Source of the DNA: a virus
Lineage: Duplodnaviria > Heunggongvirae > Uroviricota > Caudoviricetes
IMG/VR virus record: IMGVR_UViG_2526164598_000024
Strand: one strand, 5' to 3'
DNA: 34,178 nt
How positions within the stretch are numbered: the stretch's first letter is position 1; every line of letters starts with the position of its first letter. The notes beneath the pieces were generated by a model. That model was not told the DNA's origin. It made no database searches and saw only the letters and a program-made list of their open reading frames with translations. Shown here in pieces: positions 3,238 to 26,118 of this stretch. Made by a program: the position numbers and the translations under genes.

Positions 3238-3509
3238 GTATTCGTATTGAAATTGGCGAACGTTATGTCGTTACCAGTGACAGCTTTCAGTTTATTCTCC
3301 ACGAGAAAAAGAGAGCGGAAAGCGGTAAAAACGCCGGTCAGGAATGGCTGGCGGTGGTTGGTTATTACCCGAAATTAGGCCAGCTCGTTTCCGGCCTGAT
3401 GCATCACGATATTCTGACCGGAAGCGCAAAATCTTTTGCTGATTTAAACGCGCAGGTTGAGCAACTCAGCAAGCGTTGTTCAGAGGCTTTTGGCTCATAT
3501 GGCCGTTAA
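3234..3509 (+). CDS. Small early protein (P2 orf83-like)
   Basis: 91-aa ORF, ATG at 3234 overlapping previous stop; synteny. Confidence 0.55.
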   Translation: MSIRIEIGERYVVTSDSFQFILHEKKRAESGKNAGQEWLAVVGYYPKLGQLVSGLMHHDILTGSAKSFADLNAQVEQLSKRCSEAFGSYGR

Positions 3510-5775
3510 AGCCTCCGGGCGTTTTGTCCCTCCGTCAGCATTTACCGCAGGCACCGGTAAGGCGTTTACCGGTGCTTATGCATGGAACGCGCCACGCGAG
3601 GCTGTCGGGCGCGAAAGACCTCTTACACGTGACGAGATGCGTCAGGTGCAAGGTGTTTTATCCACGATTAACCGCCTGCCTTACTTTTTGCGCTCGCTGT
3701 TTACTTCACGCTATGACTACATCCGGCGCAATAAAAGCCCGGTGCACGGGTTTTATTTCCTCACATCCACTTTTCAGCGTCGTTTATGGCCGCGCATTGA
3801 GCGTGTGAATCAGCGCCATGAAATGAACACCGACGCGTCGTTGCTGTTTCTGGCAGAGCGTGACCACTATGCGCGCCTGCCGGGAATGAATGACAAGGAG
3901 CTGAAAAAGTTTGCCGCCCGTATCTCATCGCAGCTTTTCATGATGTATGAGGAACTCTGCGATGCATGGGTTGATGCGCATGGTGAAAAAGAATCGCTGT
4001 TTACGGATGAGGCGCAGGCTCACCTGTATGGTCATGTTGCTGGCGCTGCACGTGCTTTCAATATTTCCCCGCTCTACTGGAAAAAATACCGTAAAGGACA
4101 GATGACCACGAGGCAGGCATATTCTGCCATTGCCCGTCTGTTTAACGATGAGTGGTGGACTCATCAGCTTAAAGGCCAGCGTATGCGCTGGCATGAAGCG
4201 TTACTGATAGCTGTCGGGGAGGTCAATAAAGACCGTTCTCCTTATGCCAGTAAACACGCCATTCGTGATGTGCGTGCGCGCCGCCAGGCAAATCTGGAAT
4301 TTCTTAAATCGTGTGACCTTGAAAACAGGGAAACCGGCGAGCGCATCGACCTTATCAGTAAGGTGATGGGCAGTATTTCTAATCCTGAAATTCGCCGGAT
4401 GGAGCTGATGAACACCATTGCCGGTATTGAGCGTTACGCCGCCGCAGAGGGCGATGTGGGGATGTTTATCACGCTGACCGCACCGTCAAAGTATCACCCG
4501 ACACGTCAGGTCGGAAAAGGCGAAAGTAAAACCGTGCAGCTTAATCACGGCTGGAACGATGAGGCATTTAATCCAAAGGATGCGCAGCGTTATCTCTGCC
4601 GTATCTGGAGCCTGATGCGCACGGCATTCAAGGATAATGATTTACAGGTTTACGGTTTGCGAGTCGTCGAGCCACACCACGACGGAACGCCGCACTGGCA
4701 TATGATGCTTTTTTGTAATCCACGCCAGCGTAACCAGATTATTGAAATCATGCGTCGCTACGCGCTCAAAGAGGATGGCGACGAAAGAGGAGCTGCGCGA
4801 AACCGTTTTCAGGCAAAACACCTTAACCGGGGCGGTGCTGCGGGATATATCGCGAAATACATTTCAAAAAACATCGACGGCTATGCACTGGATGGTCAGC
4901 TCGATAACGATACCGGCAGGCCGCTGAAAGACACTGCCGCGGCTGTTACCGCATGGGCGTCAACGTGGCGCATTCCGCAATTTAAAACGGTTGGCCTGCC
5001 GACAATGGGGGCTTACCGTGAACTACGCAAATTGCCTCGCGGCGTCAGCATTGCTGATGAGTTTGACGAGCGCGTCGAGGCTGCACGCGCCGCCGCAGAC
5101 AGTGGTGATTTTGCGTTGTATATCAGCGCGCAGGGTGGGGCAAATGTCCCGCGCGATTGTCAGACTGTCAGGGTCGCCCGTAGCCCGTCGGATGACGTTA
5201 ACGAGTACGAGGAAGAAGTCGAGAGAGTGGTCGGCATTTACGCGCCGCATCTCGGCGCGCGTCATATTCATATCACCAGAACGACGGACTGGCGCATTGT
5301 GCCGAAAGTTCCGGTCGTTGAGCCTTTGACTTTAAAAAGCGGCATCGCCGCGCCTCGGAGTCCTGTCAATAACTGTGGAAAGCTCACCGGTGGTGATACT
5401 TCGTTACCGGCTCCCACACCTTCTGAGCACGCCGCAGCAGTGCTTAATCTGGTTGATGACGGTGTTATCGAATGGAATGACCCGGAGGTCGTGAGGGCGC
5501 TCAAAAGCGCATTAAAACACGGCCTGAGAAGACCAAACCGTCAGCAAAGAAACGGAAACCCGTTAAAACCACATGAAATTGCACCATCGGCCAGACTGAG
5601 CCGGTCGGAGCGATTGCAAATCACCCGTATCCGCGTTGACCTTGCTCAGAATGGAATCTTGCCCCAGCGATGGGAGCTTGAGGCGCTGGCGCGTGGGGCA
5701 ACCGTAAATTATGACGGGAAAAAATTCACGTATCCGGTTGCTGATGAGTGGTCGGTTTTTTCAATTAAACAATAA
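3499..5775 (+). CDS. A: Replication initiation protein A (rolling-circle nickase)
   Basis: Large ORF (track 3457..5775); ATG at 3499 overlaps end of the upstream gene and gives about 758 aa, close to P2 gpA. Contains a tyrosine-rich motif region (AGYIAKYISKNIDGY) typical of rolling-circle initiators. Confidence 0.85.
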   Translation: MAVKASGRFVPPSAFTAGTGKAFTGAYAWNAPREAVGRERPLTRDEMRQVQGVLSTINRLPYFLRSLFTSRYDYIRRNKSPVHGFYFLTSTFQRRLWPRIERVNQRHEMNTDASLLFLAERDHYARLPGMNDKELKKFAARISSQLFMMYEELCDAWVDAHGEKESLFTDEAQAHLYGHVAGAARAFNISPLYWKKYRKGQMTTRQAYSAIARLFNDEWWTHQLKGQRMRWHEALLIAVGEVNKDRSPYASKHAIRDVRARRQANLEFLKSCDLENRETGERIDLISKVMGSISNPEIRRMELMNTIAGIERYAAAEGDVGMFITLTAPSKYHPTRQVGKGESKTVQLNHGWNDEAFNPKDAQRYLCRIWSLMRTAFKDNDLQVYGLRVVEPHHDGTPHWHMMLFCNPRQRNQIIEIMRRYALKEDGDERGAARNRFQAKHLNRGGAAGYIAKYISKNIDGYALDGQLDNDTGRPLKDTAAAVTAWASTWRIPQFKTVGLPTMGAYRELRKLPRGVSIADEFDERVEAARAAADSGDFALYISAQGGANVPRDCQTVRVARSPSDDVNEYEEEVERVVGIYAPHLGARHIHITRTTDWRIVPKVPVVEPLTLKSGIAAPRSPVNNCGKLTGGDTSLPAPTPSEHAAAVLNLVDDGVIEWNDPEVVRALKSALKHGLRRPNRQQRNGNPLKPHEIAPSARLSRSERLQITRIRVDLAQNGILPQRWELEALARGATVNYDGKKFTYPVADEWSVFSIKQ

Positions 5776-5976
5776 TGGCTACTGCCGCAGCGTTGTGGGA
5801 ATGCTATAGTGTTTGTAGAATTATCCCATGAAAAACAACTAATTAATCTGTTTTTCATATTGAACTAATTTTTTATGGCCACAGTTGTTAAAAAGTGAGA
5901 ACATAATCTTGTTCAAAACCTGCTTCTATATACGGAGGCTTTCGCTATAATACGCGGTCGGTTTTAGGAGGGGATA

Positions 5977-6921
5977 ATGCCAACAGTAGTTTCACTTTTT
6001 TCTGGATGCGGTGGTTCCGATGCGGGGGTTCTGAGAGCTGGCTTTGATGTGCTTATGGCCAACGATATCTTGCCGTATGCGCGCGATGTTTATATTGCCA
6101 ATCATCCAGAAACTGATTACATTTTAGGCAATATTGCTGATGTAACTACTTTTCCTAAATCTGATTTGCTAGTAGGTTGTTATCCATGTCAGGGATTCAG
6201 CCAGGGTGGTGCGCGTAAGGCCGATCGAAAAATTAATACTCTTTATTTAGAGTTTGCTAGAGCTTTAAACAATATAAAGCCTAAAGCTTTTATAGTAGAA
6301 AACGTGTCTGGTATGGTTAGAAAAAACTTCGAGCATTTGTTATCTGACCAGATCAGGGTTTTTACTGAAGCAGGTTATGCTGTTTCAGCAAAAGTTTTGA
6401 ATGCGGCTGAATATGGAGTAGCGCAGGAAAGAAAAAGAATATTTATCGTAGGAATCCGTAATGATTTCAAAGTTAAGTACGAGTTCCCTCAGCCAACTCA
6501 TGGGCCGGCGACTGGCGTCAACTATGTTACTATTAAAGATGCTATAGGGCATTTACCTGAATGGCCAGAAGGTGAATTTTATGATATGGGGTTCCATTGG
6601 TATTATATGTCTCGCAATCGTCGCCAAGATTGGGATCAAATTTCAAAGACAATAGTTGCTAATGCAAGGCATATGCCGTTGCATCCTATCAGTCCTTCGA
6701 TGGAGAAAGTAAGAACTGATGAATGGAGGTTTGTTGAGGATCGGAGAGCTCGCAGATTCAGTTTTCGAGAGGCAGCACTATTACAAGGGTTTGAGGATCT
6801 AGTGTTTCCCGAAACAAATGCTGCAAGTCTTGGCATGAAATACACGGTGGTTGGTAATGCAGTGCCTCCGCCGCTTTTTGAAGCTGTAACGAAGGCATTG
6901 CCAATAGAATTATGGGATTGA
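5977..6921 (+). CDS. DNA (cytosine-5)-methyltransferase, Dcm family
   Basis: 314 aa; canonical C5-MTase motifs visible: FSGCGG (motif I, AdoMet binding), PCQGFS (motif IV catalytic Cys), IVENVSGM (motif VI), QERKRIFIVG (motif VIII), GNAVPPPL (motif X). Strong Shine-Dalgarno AGGAGG before ATG 5977. AT-rich compared with phage backbone. Confidence 0.9.
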   Translation: MPTVVSLFSGCGGSDAGVLRAGFDVLMANDILPYARDVYIANHPETDYILGNIADVTTFPKSDLLVGCYPCQGFSQGGARKADRKINTLYLEFARALNNIKPKAFIVENVSGMVRKNFEHLLSDQIRVFTEAGYAVSAKVLNAAEYGVAQERKRIFIVGIRNDFKVKYEFPQPTHGPATGVNYVTIKDAIGHLPEWPEGEFYDMGFHWYYMSRNRRQDWDQISKTIVANARHMPLHPISPSMEKVRTDEWRFVEDRRARRFSFREAALLQGFEDLVFPETNAASLGMKYTVVGNAVPPPLFEAVTKALPIELWD

Positions 6922-6928
6922 TAAGCTA

Positions 6929-7921
6929 TTAAGGCTCTGGATTTAATGTATAAAGTTCTTCTTCAAATTCGCGAAACCAATCAGAGGTAGTTATCGCTTC
7001 CCATTGGTTTGCCTTATCAAGTAGATATATGATCCTCAACCTATCTAATAATAATACACCAGCGGTTGCATGTGTGCTTACCCATTCGCCATTTGCTTCC
7101 CGATAGAAAACAGGCGTGAACATTGTTGATGGATGCTGGAAAGCAATTTGGAAATAGGTGGTCAGTTTTAACACGTTAGCCTCTAATGTTTTGCTTGGCC
7201 ACCCTGTTTCTTGTGCACCACATTGACCAAGAATTCCATAGTTGCTAGTTTGACCATCAGGAAATTCCACTGTAGCAATTAGGTCAAACCCAGCATCACC
7301 AGATGTGGGAGCTTTATTTATTTCCCTTGTGTTTAAACTACAAACTCCAAGATCTTTTCCTAAAATTTGTAGAGCATTCCGAAGATTCGTTCCATAATAT
7401 TTTTGCCTATCATCGGAGTTAGCATCAAAAATTCTTACGGTGCCATGTGCAGGTAAGAGAGAAATCATTGCAACTTTACATACTCTGGCAAAGCTCTTTG
7501 CCCAACGTTGTGCTGCTCCTCTAATCGACTTAAAGGATCTAAGTCTAGAGCAACAAAGGAGAAAAACATATATTCTTTGTTGTTGGTTTAGATTTTCTTT
7601 AATAATTATCTCATCACCTGAAATTATAAATGGATATATCTTTCCAAGAGCGCTTTCTCTATATTCGAGTTGTGTCCAAACATCTTCTAGTTGCTCTTCA
7701 AAACGATCATTTCTCTCTGCGTCTCCATCAATTTCTTCTTCAAAATTACATTCTTCATCAATTTCTTCAACACTTGTCATGCCGAATTTTCTTACTGAAT
7801 CTAAATCATTTTTATGCAGAGAGTTACGTCCGATATAATTAATCACCGTGAGTAACTCGGCTAAATCTGCAAACAAATGGGGAGAGTTGGGATGCATAAC
7901 TCCTACTTCAAAAGTCATCAT
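6929..7921 (-). CDS. Hypothetical protein, 330-aa, candidate nuclease/effector partner of the adjacent methyltransferase and ParB-like gene
   Basis: Long uninterrupted minus-strand ORF in AT-rich DNA; ATG at 7921/7918 preceded by GAGGTG; converges on the MTase with only a 7-bp gap between stop codons; overlaps the end of the upstream ParB-like gene by about 14 bp (operon-like). No motif I can assign with confidence. Confidence 0.7.
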   Translation of the reverse strand: MMTFEVGVMHPNSPHLFADLAELLTVINYIGRNSLHKNDLDSVRKFGMTSVEEIDEECNFEEEIDGDAERNDRFEEQLEDVWTQLEYRESALGKIYPFIISGDEIIIKENLNQQQRIYVFLLCCSRLRSFKSIRGAAQRWAKSFARVCKVAMISLLPAHGTVRIFDANSDDRQKYYGTNLRNALQILGKDLGVCSLNTREINKAPTSGDAGFDLIATVEFPDGQTSNYGILGQCGAQETGWPSKTLEANVLKLTTYFQIAFQHPSTMFTPVFYREANGEWVSTHATAGVLLLDRLRIIYLLDKANQWEAITTSDWFREFEEELYTLNPEP

Positions 7922-8350
7922 CACCTCTGCTATTTTTCTCTGCTATTTCAGAACCTATAAGCTTAATATGTTTATTGATTCTTCGTGCTACTTCATGAGC
8001 CTGTCTATCATACTCTACTGTGGCAACCATGCCTGCTGCATCTATCAAAGCCGCTTCAACTTGATAAAGTAACTGGAGAAAGTCCTTAGTAATATCAGAT
8101 GTCAATTGGTAGGCCACTGCGAGTGGAGCCCCCATTCGGAATTGCTCCAATGCCTTAGGGCTACTAACAACAGCAGCTAATTCTCTTAAATTACGTGACT
8201 CTCCAACACGAGTTTTTTTATCCTCACCTTTTTTATATAACCACTCAGTTAGCTCTTTTATTTCTTTGTTCTTTAAGCTATTAGAGTTGATAATAGGATG
8301 ACTTGGTATTGTGTCTCCATCGTCTTCGATTGAAACTCCGACAAATTGGC
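7908..8350 (-). pseudogene. C-terminal fragment of ParB/Srx-domain protein gene split by IS2
   Basis: Reading frame continues exactly from the N-terminal fragment (9682..10365) once IS2 and one TTGGC copy are removed: ...ERLGQ|FVGVSIEDDGDT.... The track ORF 7908..8387 borrows an in-frame GTG start inside the IS2 right end. Confidence 0.8.
8346..8350. repeat. IS2 target-site duplication TTGGC (copy 1)
   Basis: 5-bp direct repeat immediately flanking the IS2 terminus at 8351; identical to 9682..9686. Confidence 0.85.
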
Positions 8351-8361
8351 TGGATTTGCCC

Positions 8362-9267
8362 CTATATTTCCAGACACCTGTTATCACTTAACCCATTACT
8401 GGCCTGCTGCCGCAGATATTCCCGTGGCGAGCGATAACCCAGTGCACTATGCGGATGCCATTCGTTATAATGCTCGAACGCCTCTGCAAGGTTCTTTGCT
8501 GCCGTTAACCCGTCTGGTTTAGGCATGATACTGATGTAGTCACGCTTTATCGTTTTCACGAAGCTCTCTGCTATGCCGTTACTCTCCGGACTCCGCACCG
8601 CCGTGTTCTTCGGTTCAAGCCCCAACATCCGGGCAAACTGCCGTGTTTCATTAGCCCGGTAGCATGAACCATTATCCGTCAGCCACTCTACTGGAGACGC
8701 CGGAAGCTCGTTGCCGAAGCGGCGTTCCACCGCTCCCAGCATTACGTCCTGTACTGTTTCACTGTCGAAGCCGCCCGTAGTGACTGCCCAGTGCAGTGCC
8801 TCACGGTCACAGCAGTCCAGCGCGAACGTGACTCGCAGTTTTTCTCCGTTATCACAGCGGAACTCGAACCCGTCAGAGCACCATCGTTGATTGCTTTCTT
8901 TCACGGCCACTTTGCCAGTATGTGCCCGTTTCGATGGCGGTACAGCGGTTTTTCGCTCAAGCAACAGCGCATTCTGGCGCATGATCCGGTAAACACGTTT
9001 GGCATTGATCGCAGGCATACCATCAAGTTCGGCCTGTCTGCGAAGCAGCGCCCATACCCGACGATAACCATACGTGGGCAGCTCTCCGATAACATGGTGT
9101 ATACGGAGAAGCACATCCGTATCATCTGAGTGACGGCTGCGGCGACCATCTTTCCAGTCATCGGTTCGTCTGAGAATTACGTGCAACTGCGCACGCGACA
9201 CCCGGAGACAACGGCTGACTAAGCTTACTCCCCATCCCCGGGCAATAAGGGCGCGTGCGCTATCCAC
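8362..9267 (-). CDS. insD: IS2 transposase OrfB (InsD), DDE integrase domain
   Basis: 301-aa ORF inside IS2; recognisable IS2 InsD sequence (..[20 protein letters not shown]..); overlaps insC as expected for -1 frameshift fusion. Confidence 0.9.
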
Positions 9268-9590
9268 TTTTTTGCACGCCCGTATTCAACGGCTTCTTTA
9301 AGGAGTTCATTTTCCATCGTTTTTTTGCCGAGCAGGCGCTGGAGTTCTTTAATCTGCTTCATGGCAGCAGCAAGTTCAGAGGCAGGAACGACCTGCTCTC
9401 CTGCGGCCACAGCAGTAAGACTTCCCTCCTGGTATTGCTTGCGCCAGAGAAATAACTGGCTGGCTGCCACACCGTGTTGCCGGGCAACAAGGGAGACCGT
9501 CATTCCCGGTTCAAAACTCTGCTGAACAATAGCGATCTTTTCCTGTGTAGTACGCCGTCTGCGTTTCTCCGGTCCTAAGACATCAATCAT
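9225..9590 (-). CDS. insC: IS2 transposase OrfA (InsC), HTH DNA-binding
   Basis: ATG at 9590 gives 121 aa starting [18 protein letters not shown], recognisable as IS2 InsC; track ORF extends further upstream to an earlier start. Confidence 0.9.
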
Positions 9591-9678
9591 CTGCTCTCCA
9601 ATGACTAGTCTAAAAACTAGTATTAAGACTATCACTTATTTAAGTGATATTGGTTGTCTGGAGATTCAGGGGGCCAGT

Positions 9679-10365
9679 CTATTGGCCTAACCGCTCATCA
9701 GCAAGTGCTGTTGATAATACTGAAAATTTAATCGTTTCTTCATCTAGTTTTTCAATACCATAAAAATCATTTTCTTTAATGATTTCATACACCGCTAAAG
9801 CGTCTAGGTTACGCTTGATATGATCCCTACGACTGCCAATAGCTCTGGCAACCTCATAGTAGCGTAGCATCGGATCCTGATTTGCATTGGTATAATCAAA
9901 AAGCTGTTTAATATATCGAGCTTTTGATAAGGGCTCCCATTGTTTGACACCAGTAATATGTCTGAAACCAAGATACGGAAGAATCTCTTCTCTTGTTTGG
10001 CGCTCAATGACAGGAACACGATCGACTGTATGTTTTGCATTTGATGCAATTTCTCGTAGTCGAGCACTTGGATTTTCACATAGTGTCGGATCGCGTAATA
10101 ATTTAACTGCGGATAGGCGACGGTTTCCTTCAACTACAATGTACTTCCCCGGCGCGACACTGTCAGGAATGACAATCAATGGTTCTCCAGGGAAAAAACC
10201 ATTTTCCGCAATAGCACTCATTAGATCTTCGATAGATGTTGAGGTTGCTATGTAGTTAATCATTCCCAATTGGTCACGAGACACGCCTTCAGGAAGTCTT
10301 GGGTTTTCTGTGTCAAGTTCCAAATCATCTAGCGGAACATAAAGTATTTCTGAATCAGCAATCAT
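9679..10365 (-). pseudogene. N-terminal fragment of ParB/Srx N-domain protein gene, truncated by IS2 (stop codon supplied by IS2 terminus)
   Basis: 228-aa ORF with ATG at 10365 and GGAG Shine-Dalgarno; contains ParB-box-like motif IVVEGNRRLSAVKLL (GxxRxxA arginine patch of ParB/sulfiredoxin fold). The TAG stop at 9679..9681 is the first three bases of IS2 (TAGACTGG...). Confidence 0.8.
9682..9686. repeat. IS2 target-site duplication TTGGC (copy 2)
   Basis: Identical 5-mer to 8346..8350, directly abutting the other IS2 terminus. Confidence 0.85.
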
Positions 10366-10591
10366 CTGGATCTCCGTTGAACATGTCTACGAGAAGGAGC
10401 ACAAAGTTATTTCATAACATGCAATATACTCATTCTGTAGCCATAAATGAATTATTCATGATGTAAGATTCGCGTTGATGTGCGTGAATTCGCAAGTAAT
10501 TTTATAGCAAGGTTTGATTGGGTATCGTTAGCACTGGCGCGGTTTCAACGTATTCATGCACCTGCATTAAAACCGACCCATGAAGCGGGCG

Positions 10592-10610
10592 GGCGAGGCG
10601 GGGAAAGCAC
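10592..10610. other. cos site, 19-nt cohesive end sequence of P2-type phages
   Basis: Sequence GGCGAGGCGGGGAAAGCAC matches the P2 cohesive end as I recall it; located between the cargo island and the portal gene Q, as expected. Confidence 0.7.
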
Positions 10611-10779
10611 TGCGCGCTGGCGGTGGTGCTGATTTTATTTTTTCAGCGTCTGAGCGCGTCGTGATGGCGTTTAGATTGTTAGCCGGGGCGTTGGTGTGTC
10701 TGCGGGCTGTTTTGTGCGGTGGTGAGCGTGTGAGAGCGTGATGGCGGGTTGTAAAAAAGCCGCCCGCAGGCGGCGATGT

Positions 10780-11814
10780 TCAGCCGTTGTCAGTGTCCAG
10801 TGAGTAGTTTTTAAAGCGGATGACCTCCTGACCGAGCCAGCCGTTTATCTCGCGGATCCTGTCCTGTAACGGGATAAGTTCATTGCGGACAAAGACCTTT
10901 GCCACTTTCTCAATATCACCCAGCGACCCGACGTTCTCCGGCTTGCCACCCATCAACTGAAAGGGGATGCGGTGCGCGTCCAGCAGGTCAGCGGCGCTGG
11001 CTTTTTTGATATTAAAAAAATCGTCCTTCGTCGCCACTTCACTGAGGGGGATAATTTTAATGCCGTCGGCTTTCCCCTGTGGGGCATAGAGAAACAGGTT
11101 TTTAAAGTTGTTGCGGCCTTTCGACTTGACCATGTTTTCGCGAAGCATTTCGATATCGTTGCGGTCCTGCACGGCATCGGTGACGTACATGATGTATCCG
11201 GCATGTGCGCCGTTTTCGTAATACTTGCGGCGGAACAGCGTGGCCGACTCATTCAGCCAGGCAGAGTTAAGGGCGCTGAGATATTCCGGCAGACCGTACA
11301 GCTCCTGATTAATATCCGGCTCCAGCAGGTGAAACACGGAGCCGGGCGCGAAAGGTGTCGGCTCGTTGAAAGACGGCACCCACCAGTAAACATCCTCCTC
11401 CACGCCACGACGGGTATATTTGGCCGGTGAGGTTTCCAGTCTGATGACCTTACCGGTGGTGCTGTAACGCTTTTCCAGAAACGCATTACCGAACACCAGA
11501 AAATCCAGCACAAAACGGCTGAAATCCTGCTGGGAAAGCCACGGGTGCGGGATAAACGTTGAAGCCAGAATATTACGTTTGACGTAAATCGGTGAGCTGT
11601 GATGCACGGCAGCACGCAGACTTTTTGCCAGGCCGGTAAAGCTGACCGGTGGCTCATACCATCTGCCGTTACTGATGCACTCGACGTAATCCAGAATGTC
11701 ACGCCGGTCGAGTACCGGTACCGGCTCACCAAAGGTGAATGCCTCCATTTTCGGGGCGCTGGCGGTCATTGTTTTTGCCGCAGGTTGCGGTGTTTTCCCT
11801 TTTTTCTTGCTCAT
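10780..11814 (-). CDS. Q: Portal protein
   Basis: 344-aa ORF, ATG at 11814 overlapping the terminase stop (ATGA); divergent from O/N/M as in P2; length equals P2 gpQ. Confidence 0.9.
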   Translation of the reverse strand: MSKKKGKTPQPAAKTMTASAPKMEAFTFGEPVPVLDRRDILDYVECISNGRWYEPPVSFTGLAKSLRAAVHHSSPIYVKRNILASTFIPHPWLSQQDFSRFVLDFLVFGNAFLEKRYSTTGKVIRLETSPAKYTRRGVEEDVYWWVPSFNEPTPFAPGSVFHLLEPDINQELYGLPEYLSALNSAWLNESATLFRRKYYENGAHAGYIMYVTDAVQDRNDIEMLRENMVKSKGRNNFKNLFLYAPQGKADGIKIIPLSEVATKDDFFNIKKASAADLLDAHRIPFQLMGGKPENVGSLGDIEKVAKVFVRNELIPLQDRIREINGWLGQEVIRFKNYSLDTDNG

Positions 11815-25218: not shown

Positions 25219-26118
25219 ATGAGTGGTATTCGTATAACTCAGGCTATTGATAACAATCAGATTTTAGTCAATGTAAATACTTTTAATTATAGTGTTAATC
25301 CCTATCCACTCAAATGTCCTGACCCAAATTGCTCTGCTCATTTGGTGTATGTCAAAAGCCATATTCGTCGGAGTTTTAATAAAACCTTGCATATCCCCGC
25401 CTTCTTTAGACTGGAAAAAAATTTCACGCATGACAAATTATGTCAGTATGGAACTTCAGGATTGAATACAATTTATGCAAGTGATTCCAGTCATGATATC
25501 AGCCGTGCGCTTGCCACAGGTAATAATATATTCCGTATACATATACTCGATGAAGATGATATCTCTAAATTAAGCAGAAAAGCTGCAGCTATGCAGGCAA
25601 ATCCACCTTCTGATACTACAGACCGCGTTTATGTCAAGAGAGGTCGGAAAGCCCCCTATGTGAAGAACATGGATAGCTTACGGGAGATCTATGAATATGG
25701 AAAAGCTCACCCCAACAAGAGAAACAGCATAAAAATTGTTACTGGAACAAGTACTGTAACGTGGTCTGATTTTTTCTATGAAACAACGCAGTTAGAACGA
25801 TTGTCAACTTACCTCCAGAAAGTAAAAATAGCTCAGGTTGCTGTAATTATGAAAGTGCATGTGGCGAGAATCCCTATGGCGAAATTTAATTATCGACACT
25901 TCATTGAAGGTTCGCCAATGAGGATAAAAGGGGGCTTTAATATATATCCTACGATTCAATTAGGAAATGTTACTCCAAAATTATTTCCGTTGAGTAGCAT
26001 TGTCATGGTACTCGGTAAATTTACTATTCCAACAAATAGAAAAATGATAATGGATCCAACATTTGAGCGTGAAGTCAGAACCATAGTTTCTAGTGAAGAG
26101 CAAGTGCTAATTCTTTGA
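25219..26118 (+). CDS. Hypothetical protein in the Z/fun cargo locus (candidate phage-exclusion/defence gene)
   Basis: 299-aa ORF with strong GGAGGA Shine-Dalgarno, visibly AT-rich, flanked by long non-coding spacers between G and FI (the P2 Z/fun position). N-terminal Cys/His cluster (CPDPNCSAHLVYVKSH). May be the P2 Z/fun homologue; I cannot confirm from memory. Confidence 0.65.
   Translation: MSGIRITQAIDNNQILVNVNTFNYSVNPYPLKCPDPNCSAHLVYVKSHIRRSFNKTLHIPAFFRLEKNFTHDKLCQYGTSGLNTIYASDSSHDISRALATGNNIFRIHILDEDDISKLSRKAAAMQANPPSDTTDRVYVKRGRKAPYVKNMDSLREIYEYGKAHPNKRNSIKIVTGTSTVTWSDFFYETTQLERLSTYLQKVKIAQVAVIMKVHVARIPMAKFNYRHFIEGSPMRIKGGFNIYPTIQLGNVTPKLFPLSSIVMVLGKFTIPTNRKMIMDPTFEREVRTIVSSEEQVLIL

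Follow-up and report, generated by a model that had tools for sequence, protein, structure and literature searches.

The three genes found between gene A and cos in the window (the whole stretch of viral DNA analysed, 34,178 nt) encode what we read, with a probability of roughly 0.55, as a mobile three-protein restriction–modification (R-M)-like system whose PD-(D/E)xK restriction arm is controlled by a ParB-type switch. A C5-methyltransferase would mark resident DNA at a short GGCC-like site, and the ParB-like and winged-helix/PD-(D/E)xK proteins, products of one translationally coupled operon, would jointly form the restriction arm. Within it, the ParB-like subunit would act as a DNA-loading, nucleotide-controlled switch that brings in the PD-(D/E)xK subunit, or licenses it, to cleave DNA lacking the methyl mark. 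We presume that methylation blocks the nuclease, that the switch uses a nucleotide and that the outcome is anti-phage. The locus is laid out as follows (coordinates within the window).

5828–5858, no strand: perfect 10-bp inverted repeat ATGAAAAACA-N11-TGTTTTTCAT, ~149 nt upstream of the methylase start
5977–6921, plus strand: intact C5-cytosine DNA methyltransferase gene, 314 aa (Pfam DNA_methylase, NCBIfam dcm, motifs)
6929–7924, minus strand: intact gene for a winged-helix + PD-(D/E)xK protein, assigned from predicted structure
7908–8350, minus strand: 3′ portion of the ParB-like gene, from codon ~228 onwards, overlapping the nuclease gene start by 11–17 nt
8351–9681, minus strand: IS2, 1331 bp, with insA/insB-type ORFs, inside the ParB-like gene; both terminal repeats and the duplication located
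9682–10365, minus strand: 5′ part of the ParB-like gene, encoding a ParB/Srx N domain (DxxNPR and EGNRR motifs) and HTH
10592–10610, plus strand: right-hand hotspot boundary, an exact match to the 19-mer GGCGAGGCGGGGAAAGCAC, which we take to be the P2 cos cohesive-end sequence
10780–11814, minus strand: portal gene Q

The cassette thus sits where the preliminary description had placed it, at a defence hotspot already known in P2-type prophages, between the end of the gene A ORF at 5775 (its left flank) and cos at 10592–10610, and it is as AT-rich as claimed there (39.8% GC with IS2 excluded, against 53.2% for the remaining window). The inverted repeat ahead of the methylase may serve as an operator or mark where the gene A transcript ends. 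A related repeat, GAAAAATA-N18-TATTTTTC, stands at equal distance in diverged P2/186-type loci; among the homologous loci compared, none was found outside P2-type backbones.

The methylase has strong matches to Pfam DNA_methylase (E 5e-65) and NCBIfam dcm (2.6e-56). Every catalytic motif attributed to it beforehand was located (FSGCGG, PCQGFS, ENV, QERKR, RRFSFREAALLQGF and GNAVPP), giving the cassette a DNA methyltransferase with intact catalytic motifs, as expected of an R-M system. Among solved structures M.HaeIII is its closest match (E 2.8e-48); the alignment covers residues 4–308 and takes in the target-recognition domain. Because the two target-recognition domains align, a GGCC-like site is predicted for the window's enzyme, and arginines are found at the positions aligned to M.HaeIII Arg225, Arg227 and Arg243, which reportedly contact DNA in the 1995 structure of that enzyme.

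Converging on the methylase, with exactly 7 nt from stop to stop as first described, is a gene whose product has 331 aa if translation begins at a GTG and 329 aa if it begins at the ATG at 7918 (the RefSeq start). This protein had been called an unknown without recognizable motif and a putative R-M partner; the second part gains from structure prediction and the first does not stand, since the model confidently indicates an N-terminal winged helix and a C-terminal restriction-endonuclease fold of the PD-(D/E)xK type. No sequence similarity to solved endonucleases was found. The family numbers ~1200 diverged representatives in public data; neither a Pfam family nor a defence-finder model covers it, and it is not known to have any activity. 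Across these representatives the acidic residues of GD.G.D are invariant just where they are normally found, ahead of core strand 2, as are a nearby Q and K, and the acidic/polar residues of GD.G.D, GQC, W..K and DR.R are conserved in all subfamilies examined; the lysine of the (D/E)xK triad is missing from its usual place. The protein is presumably catalytically active. For a middle gene annotated 'hypothetical', the analysis supplies a fold and candidate catalytic residues, and for the cassette a predicted methylation site.

The ParB-like gene can be read only after repair. Deleting IS2 and one copy of its 5-bp target duplication (TTGGC, at 8346–8350 and 9682–9686) yields an ORF of 373 aa, the length anticipated for the ParB/Srx N-domain protein, identical to WP_000559726. 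Its layout is that of ParB/KorB: an NTP-binding N domain (GNRR), an HTH and a helical C domain, which probably dimerises. The GERR nucleotide-binding motif is kept as GNRR with both arginines, and the N-domain fold with NPR and GxRR motifs followed by HTH is as in the classical ParB-CTPase branch. The hydrolysis motif ENLQR is absent from the protein, its place taken by an invariant F-R-H-I-T-G. The best structural match is KorB, a ParB-family CTP-dependent repressor, and the structural neighbours in general are CTP/ATP-binding switches and kinases, not proven nucleases. Relative to the canonical ParB, KorB and Noc CTP-switch clamps, the window's protein shares the N domain–HTH–C domain order and the NPR and GxRR motifs but is without ENLQR, ParA and a parS array, and its partners are a nuclease and a methylase. 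No ParA gene was found in any locus examined, and neither a parS-like repeat array nor a StbA partner was seen. The overlap with the nuclease gene, first put at about 14 bp, measures 11 nt in the window when the ATG is taken as start and 17 nt with the GTG; in the two homologous loci whose gene calls were read (Burkholderia and Pseudomonas) it is 14 nt.

This arrangement recurs in dozens of unrelated genomes, and so lies far beyond chance. The nuclease-fold gene is immediately preceded by an overlapping ParB-like gene in 17/17 genome loci and in all 28 viral contigs with sufficient upstream sequence (45/45 together), bearing out the proposed operon; on its other side, only a few bases away, comes a convergent C5-methylase in 11/15 genome loci and 29/29 contigs. 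All three genes therefore travel together as anticipated, with methylase and nuclease co-inherited, as in R-M systems, at 40 of the 44 informative loci. Hosts are Gamma- and Betaproteobacteria, and the carriers comprise the P2/186 hotspot, integrase-adjacent islands in Burkholderia and Pseudomonas, a Pseudomonas Citexvirus and a site adjacent to an inovirus-like prophage. Remote relatives of the nuclease (about 28–33% identity) are still positioned behind a ParB-like gene and adjoin other C5-methylases (30% and 42% identical to the window's) together with Vsr, the T:G repair nuclease that typically accompanies 5mC R-M systems. Between subfamilies, identity is 63–76% for the methylase, 34% for ParB and 26% for the nuclease; a methylase better conserved than its partners is the usual R-M pattern, and R-M cassettes that spread horizontally typically have low GC and methylase and restriction genes that converge tail to tail.

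The same proteins are already on record. The P2-hotspot table of Rousset et al. 2022 (PMC9122126) lists the exact proteins of the window's cassette (Table S5A: WP_001143635/6, WP_000142507/9 and WP_000559725/6, the accessions also annotated in loci L001 and L002) under system #2, 'RM-like system', whose 1136 occurrences among 18,150 loci make it the second most frequent occupant group; the arrangement given, DNA_methylase, hypothetical and ParBc between gpA and gpQ, is matched by the window. The preliminary description, which could place the combination in no named defence system, is corrected on this point; its reading of modification-dependent self/non-self discrimination persists, methylation-based DNA targeting being our best reading too. 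The entry is a catalogue label, with neither a fold for the middle protein nor a mechanism. From the same study, the cassette of phage Wφ (E. coli W) was cloned (pFR107 'RM-like'), apparently without conferring protection, and stands among the additional tested, not the validated, systems (PMC9122126). Wφ orf98-orf96-mth shares with the window the locus (gpA to cos/gpQ), the three-gene architecture and the orientation: hhalign relates gp96 to the 329-aa protein (99.4%), gp98 is a homologue of the ParB-like protein at 34% identity, and the two methylases share 76% identity. With ParB at 34% and the nuclease at 26% identity, Wφ represents another sequence lineage than the window's subfamily. Host Type IV enzymes such as McrBC are a reason why this sole published K-12 test may not decide. 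The cassette is thus widespread and catalogued, and the best reading is an R-M-like variant that includes an NTP-switch subunit and whose window copy has been inactivated.

PADLOC matches the ParB-like protein to PD-Lambda-5_A (aa 9–192, E 1.6e-28), so a named system is indeed hit, with the match limited to the N-terminal ~190 aa; hhalign pairs aa 7–201 with the PD-λ-5_A-type protein of Marinobacter phage AS1 (98.8%). The match ends at ~196 of 440 profile positions (profiles are 440–500 aa), leaving the HEPN-type C-terminal half absent, whereas in true PD-λ-5_A (AS1_27 and the Vibrio gp42+gp41 pair) it extends to the profile end. The window's methylase has no significant BLASTP similarity to AS1_26 (E 0.028 over 46 aa), which is PD-Lambda-5_B (4e-103) and Pfam MethyltransfD12, whereas the window's enzyme is Pfam DNA_methylase (C5). 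Of the parts that define PD-λ-5 in PADLOC/DefenseFinder, the window has the N-terminal module; there is no HEPN half, and the methylase is C5, not D12-class N6-adenine. PD-λ-5 is a validated methylase-containing defence system, for which an mrr-deleted host was required (Vassallo et al. 2022). Both systems combine a ParB N+HTH module with a DNA methylase and ride on prophages near an integrase or hotspot. In PD-λ-5 a HEPN effector is fused to the ParB module and the D12-class methylase gene is co-directional with gene A; in the window the presumed effector, with winged helix and PD-(D/E)xK fold, is encoded apart from the ParB-like protein, which carries a helical C domain of its own, and the C5 methylase is convergent. 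A phenotype is proven for PD-λ-5 and none for the window's cassette.

Other systems share parts of this design. The ParB–DNA methylase–HEPN (MAE_28990) operons, for which comparative genomics led to the prediction of an R-M-like conflict system (Anantharaman et al. 2013), likewise join a ParB fold, a methylase and a nucleic-acid-cleaving protein, the third component being a HEPN RNase there and a REase-fold protein here. GmrSD/SspE/DndB-type DUF262 enzymes also unite a ParB-superfamily NTPase domain and a nuclease in modification-aware defence, but as one polypeptide (DUF262 with a DGQQR motif plus HNH-type DUF1524) that is modification-dependent or PT-sensing and needs no cognate methylase; the window pairs a classical GxRR-type ParB, on a subunit of its own, with a PD-(D/E)xK fold and a methylase that would protect. 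McrBC is similar in operon form, with two overlapping genes for an NTP-dependent DNA-binding subunit and a PD-(D/E)xK nuclease subunit as in the window, but McrB is an AAA+ GTPase and the enzyme attacks methylated DNA and works without a methylase. HaeIII-type Type II R-M offers a methylase, M.HaeIII, that aligns end to end with the window's; here the restriction arm consists of two unrelated proteins, one with a ParB fold.

A bolder form of our reading, possible if doubtful, makes the ParB-like subunit a true nucleotide-switch clamp and the 'motor/licensing' subunit of an NTP-dependent restriction class outside Types I–IV. Loaded onto DNA without the methyl mark, such a clamp would shut once NTP is bound and then slide, bringing in the PD-(D/E)xK subunit or switching it on. 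The ParB sensor could be swapped among effectors, a DNase in the window and an RNase in PD-λ-5, and among methylases of the C5 and N6A kinds. If true, the ParB nucleotide-switch fold would join the SF2 helicase/translocase and the AAA+ GTPase among restriction engines, and the mechanism would also account for DNA sensing by PD-λ-5.

The subunit roles might instead be reversed, with the ParB-like protein as DNase/NTPase effector and the REase-fold protein as a catalytically dead DNA-binding or methylation-reading sensor. Aravind and colleagues (Anantharaman et al.) read R-M-operon ParB domains in that way, inactive REase sensor domains are proposed in Menshen, the PD-λ-5 ParB module works with a non-DNase partner (HEPN), and the absence of the triad lysine from its usual place would fit a dead enzyme; the invariance of GD.G.D and its neighbouring Q and K, and structural neighbours that are nucleotide switches and kinases, make the exchange unlikely. 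That the ParB-like protein does no more than control transcription in the manner of KorB, as an oversized counterpart of a C protein beside an ordinary Type II pair, we judge very unlikely. The match to KorB, the HTH and the conserved inverted repeats upstream of the methylase speak for control, but the repeat is missing outside P2-type backbones, the protein is tied to the nuclease as strictly as any subunit (overlapping in 45/45) and is better conserved than it (mean column identity 66% versus 62%), and fusion of the same N+HTH module directly to the HEPN effector in PD-λ-5_A is unexpected for a regulator.

The nuclease arm could also belong to an abortive-infection or addiction module ('RM+Abi'), kept inactive until infection or loss of the element triggers it to kill the cell, with methylation as antidote or independent first line. 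Because the Wφ-type cassette figures only among the additional tested systems of Rousset et al., constitutive restriction may be absent, and carrier prophages and islands would profit from post-segregational killing. A DNase-fold rather than HEPN RNase effector, the lack of an evident trigger-sensing domain, and Vsr and varied C5-methylases pointing to long-term genome-wide methylation as in standard R-M leave this quite unlikely. Most improbable is that defence plays no part, the methylase serving the phage's own anti-restriction or epigenetic control and the ParB-like/nuclease pair its DNA handling or plasmid-like maintenance. ParB-family proteins usually partition DNA, no phenotype has been demonstrated for the cassette, and partition systems are common in the hotspot, but those are StbA-type, unlike this cassette (Rousset et al., PMC9122126). 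The missing ParA/StbA partner and parS-like array, a restriction-endonuclease fold and Vsr linkage foreign to partition, and carriage on P2-unrelated chromosomal islands and beside a filamentous prophage argue against such a role.

For the window itself the finding is modest, its copy being inactivated by IS2. The IS2-free 3480-bp cassette is 100% identical to an intact copy in E. coli TW10590, and no record among the complete E. coli genomes in the collection covers at least 80% of the IS2-split form. With the operon's leading gene interrupted by IS2, the restriction arm is either dead or badly impaired, and the insertion is probably polar on the nuclease gene; the methylase is intact. This copy is a relic in which probably only the methylase remains active. 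The disruptions seen, IS2 here and a frameshift in NCTC8623, both fall in the ParB gene and none in the methylase; loss of the restriction arm with the methylase kept would be the order of loss that an R-M system tolerates.

The preliminary description of the AT-rich cargo that this P2-type prophage carries between gene A and cos was accurate in structure, down to the arrangement of its genes:

up to 5775: end of gene A, left flank of the cassette
5977–6921 (+): C5-cytosine methyltransferase, 314 aa
6929–7924 (-): middle gene, convergent; 331 aa from GTG, 329 aa from ATG (RefSeq start)
7908–8350 and 9682–10365 (-): the two pieces of the ParB-like gene
8351–9681: IS2 (1331 bp), both terminal repeats present, flanked by a target duplication of 5 bp, TTGGC
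10592–10610: P2 cos 19-mer, between gene A and Q
10780–11814 (-): portal gene Q

The block from gene A to Q has 39.8% GC, against 53.2% for the remaining window. The stop of the middle gene lies 7 nt from that of the methylase, and the ParB-like gene, upstream of the middle gene and overlapping it by 11–17 nt, is split by the insertion. Removing IS2 in silico brings back the 373-aa ParB-like ORF that had been anticipated, and the repaired 3480-bp cassette is the same, base for base, as the intact cassette of E. coli TW10590 and 99.9% identical to that of ATCC 8739. Of 5426 complete E. coli genomes, 48 carry this variant at full length (≥95% nucleotide identity), annotated in all 48 as 'ParB N-terminal domain-containing protein | hypothetical protein | DNA cytosine methyltransferase'; the IS2 insertion occurs in none of these 48.

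The methyltransferase (Pfam DNA_methylase, E 5e-65) retains all the usual motifs, in keeping with the earlier reading of a complete catalytic set. Its closest solved relative is M.HaeIII (GGCC; E 2.8e-48), with an alignment that spans the whole enzyme, target-recognition domain included. Arg225, Arg227 and Arg243 are DNA-contacting residues of M.HaeIII, and the aligned positions of the prophage enzyme are all arginines. This HaeIII-like recognition domain is almost unchanged across all subfamilies (between-subfamily identity is 63–76% for the methylase, ~34% for the ParB-like protein and ~26% for the nuclease-fold protein), which leads us to predict a GGCC-like target site, modified as GG(5mC)C. 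Considered as a restriction footprint, GGCC occurs 3.75 times per kb in the prophage, compared with 8.6 times for CCGG; phage λ has a similar ratio, and the count is therefore uninformative.

Profile searches found as little in the middle protein as the preliminary description, which recognized no motif in it: there is no match in Pfam, NCBIfam or PADLOC, PHROG matches are confined to families of unknown function and an HMM comparison with all PDB sequences detects no relative. Fold comparison was the sole informative approach. The AlphaFold model is confident (pLDDT 87.7, pTM 0.89) and reveals a winged helix joined to a PD-(D/E)xK fold. Three diverged subfamilies, represented by the window's protein, gp96 of phage Wφ and a 299-aa protein of Pseudomonas phage vB_PaeM-D14A, are homologous (hhalign 99.4% and 99.7%), and share with two remote members the motifs GD.G.D, GQC, W..K and DR.R. 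The first of these precedes a core strand, GQC lies on the next strand and W..K on the following helix, an arrangement compatible with a PD-(D/E)xK site whose lysine has been relocated; D208, D212, Q232 and K243 are the candidate catalytic residues. Because the usual lysine position is G or A in this family, catalytic competence is something that we infer.

The ParB-like protein, modelled from a 91%-identical homologue (pLDDT 89.5), has a full ParB architecture. All positions of its DxxNPR and EGNRR motifs are invariant except R23 (conserved to at least 90%), and in an alignment with a genuine ParB the GNRR falls opposite GERR. True ParB carries an ENLQR motif, whose place is taken here by an invariant FRHITG. 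With DxxNPR and EGNRR kept and GNRR equivalent to GERR, binding of some nucleotide, with or without hydrolysis, is plausible. The search for a named system proposed at the outset, empty for the middle protein, did give a result here: PADLOC PD-Lambda-5_A models match the first ~190 residues (E 1.6e-28), and the 25 listed of 26 matched PADLOC families are all PD-Lambda-5_A or PDC-M38A models.

The three genes, suspected from the window to form one module, do travel together. In all 17 of 17 loci drawn from GTDB species representatives, from four contig look-ups and from two annotated E. coli copies, the middle gene is immediately preceded by the ParB-like gene, which overlaps it, and a convergent C5-methylase comes next in 11 of the 15 informative cases; IMG/VR viral contigs have the ParB-like gene in 28/28 and the methylase in 29/29. 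Middle-protein homologues of ~50% identity are spread across Gamma- and Betaproteobacteria. Carriers include the P2/186 hotspot of E. coli, Salmonella and Yersinia phages, integrase-adjacent islands of Burkholderia and Pseudomonas, and phage vB_PaeM-D14A, where the cassette sits at a different position. A Methylophilaceae locus (L026) places it beside an inovirus-like prophage (Zot, Rep_trans, secretin), with the nuclease-fold gene separated from the methylase by an inserted 254-aa HNH_2 endonuclease gene (10165–10929).

Four loci depart from the pattern. In a Methylovulum MAG (L010), an IS607-type element at 3283–5104 stands exactly in the usual place of the methylase; the element, a serine recombinase plus TnpB, directly follows the nuclease-fold gene and is itself followed by an AIPR-like gene. 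On one short contig that place is taken by a convergent gene of unrelated kind. The other two, on methanotroph chromosomes (L014 and L015; Crenothrix, Methylococcaceae), hold the ParB–nuclease pair but no methylase in its vicinity; they may be relics, or a form that is independent of the methylase. These pairs lie at about 5850–7960 amid housekeeping genes, and the nuclease gene of L015 is shortened, with the C-terminal helices missing. Separately, the plague-diagnostic Yersinia phage L-413C (L020) retains a 330-aa ParB-like remnant at 207–1199 (aa 9–303, 62% identical), with both nuclease gene and methylase missing; its cassette appears decayed.

Among 1.84 billion representative proteins, a profile search picked up 1193 that are related to the middle protein (E ≤ 1e-3); the best-scoring 150 are all stand-alone proteins, mostly of 290–365 aa, the shorter ones covering part of the profile. 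The genomic setting is preserved in the two remote relatives that were looked up. One, on metagenome contig L059, has a ParB-like gene of full length (hhalign 100%, 42% identity) 5′ of the nuclease-family gene, neighboured by Vsr and a different C5-methylase of 413 aa (30% identical to the window's). On contigs L061 and L062, the genes 3′ of the nuclease-family gene are those for a C5-methylase of 329 aa (42% identical), Vsr and ArdC; one case among the metagenome contigs L059–L062 has an extra 386-aa gene of unknown kind. The nuclease/ParB-like family is wider, and its modules combine more freely, than the P2 cases alone would indicate, and its ties to changing C5-methylases and to Vsr are the expectation for a 5-methylcytosine restriction–modification (R-M) system.

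This cassette is already on record. The P2 hotspot loci table of Rousset et al. 2022 (PMC9122126) lists the cassette's exact accessions as 'DNA_methylase + hypothetical + ParBc' and merges such cassettes into system #2, 'RM-like system' (1136 occurrences). The three-gene homologue from E. coli W (phage Wφ, orf98-orf96-mth) was cloned there as pFR107 'RM-like', and stands in the table of additional tested systems, outside the validated ones. The preliminary reading as R-M-like was reasonable, but the cassette had been catalogued as such and is related to a named system, PD-λ-5, described as 'ParB/HEPN, methyltransferase' (Vassallo et al. 2022, PMC9519451). Anantharaman et al. 2013 had earlier drawn attention to operons that join a ParB nuclease and a DNA methylase to a HEPN protein.

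For comparison we took genuine PD-λ-5 systems, one from Marinobacter phage AS1 and one from Vibrio phage ValB1MD-2. Their ParB N+HTH module is homologous to that of the cassette (hhalign 98.8% over aa 7–201), whereas the HEPN half is missing from the cassette and the PD-λ-5 methylase is a D12 N6-adenine enzyme rather than a C5-cytosine one. Two of three sequence-definable features fail, and we reject identity with PD-λ-5. In ValB1MD-2 (L023, 3132–5571), PD-λ-5 protein A is encoded as two genes (a 252-aa ParB part and a 265-aa C-terminal part) followed by the adenine methylase, so the ParB module can form a subunit by itself, as it does in the cassette of the window. A Menshen or DUF262-type ParB system is rejected on motif (GNRR versus DGQQR) and on the listed PADLOC matches. 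Partition is likewise rejected: the partition systems found in a quarter of P2 phages by Rousset et al. (PMC9122126) are StbA/Plasmid_stab_B system #1, not this cassette. A literature search for a characterized ParB–nuclease–methylase system found none. The cassette is neither a PD-λ-5 member as defined nor categorically new; it is a third-effector variant of a known, mechanistically unexplained kind. The additions made here are the fold of the middle protein, the complete ParB architecture of the first, the HaeIII-like methylase, and a strict three-gene linkage in which effector and methylase are swapped relative to PD-λ-5.

From the observed gene linkage, folds and motif conservation we infer an R-M-like mechanism, at a probability of roughly 55%. 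The methylase would mark resident DNA; the ParB-like and nuclease-fold proteins, co-translated, would jointly form the restriction arm, the former loading onto DNA and acting as a switch under nucleotide control, the PD-(D/E)xK subunit cleaving unmarked DNA. The more specific idea of a ParB nucleotide-switch clamp as the restriction engine we consider possible though less probable. E. coli MG1655 carries McrBC, which attacks HaeIII-type methylated DNA. The main point against the R-M-like mechanism is that the Wφ-type cassette, the sister put to the one published assay, with K-12 as test host, is not among the validated systems of Rousset et al. (PMC9122126), a result that carries a caveat because of McrBC in MG1655 and because PD-λ-5 needed an mrr deletion.

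It is also weakened by an active site that departs from the canonical form, by modest fold scores and by the four loci lacking a methylase. Less probable alternatives are that the two proteins have exchanged roles, ParB being the DNase and the REase-fold protein a sensor; that the cassette is an ordinary Type II pair under a KorB-like controller; that it is a module for Abi or addiction; or that it serves a non-defence role.

The copy in the window is broken. IS2 sits at codon ~228 of the ParB-like gene, 3′ of the N domain and HTH, in the first gene of a two-gene operon, and the methylase and nuclease ORFs are unbroken; this leaves a restriction arm that is most probably inactive and a methylase that probably still works. 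A ParB-like lesion with the methylase spared is a decay order permitted for an R-M system, and the only other lesion seen, in E. coli NCTC8623, one of the 48 genomes above, also falls in the ParB-like gene. There (L025, 2284–3406) a 1-bp difference splits the gene into two CDS, with nuclease and methylase whole, and could be a true frameshift or an assembly error.

Operator-like repeats were sought 5′ of the ParB-like gene, with nothing convincing. On the methylase side, a perfect inverted repeat, ATGAAAAACA-N11-TGTTTTTCAT, occupies 5828–5858, ~149 nt upstream of the start, and a kindred repeat, GAAAAATA-N18-TATTTTTC, lies at the same distance in diverged P2/186-type loci. The repeat is confined to P2-type backbones, being absent from non-P2 contexts, and may be an operator or a terminator for gene A. 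Elsewhere in the window, a 299-aa ORF of ~38% GC at 25219–26118 (+), with no match in Pfam or PADLOC, has the tail-fibre assembly gene on one side and the sheath gene on the other; its position is that of P2 Z/fun, Vassallo's second P2 defence hotspot, making it a second unannotated cargo gene of this prophage.
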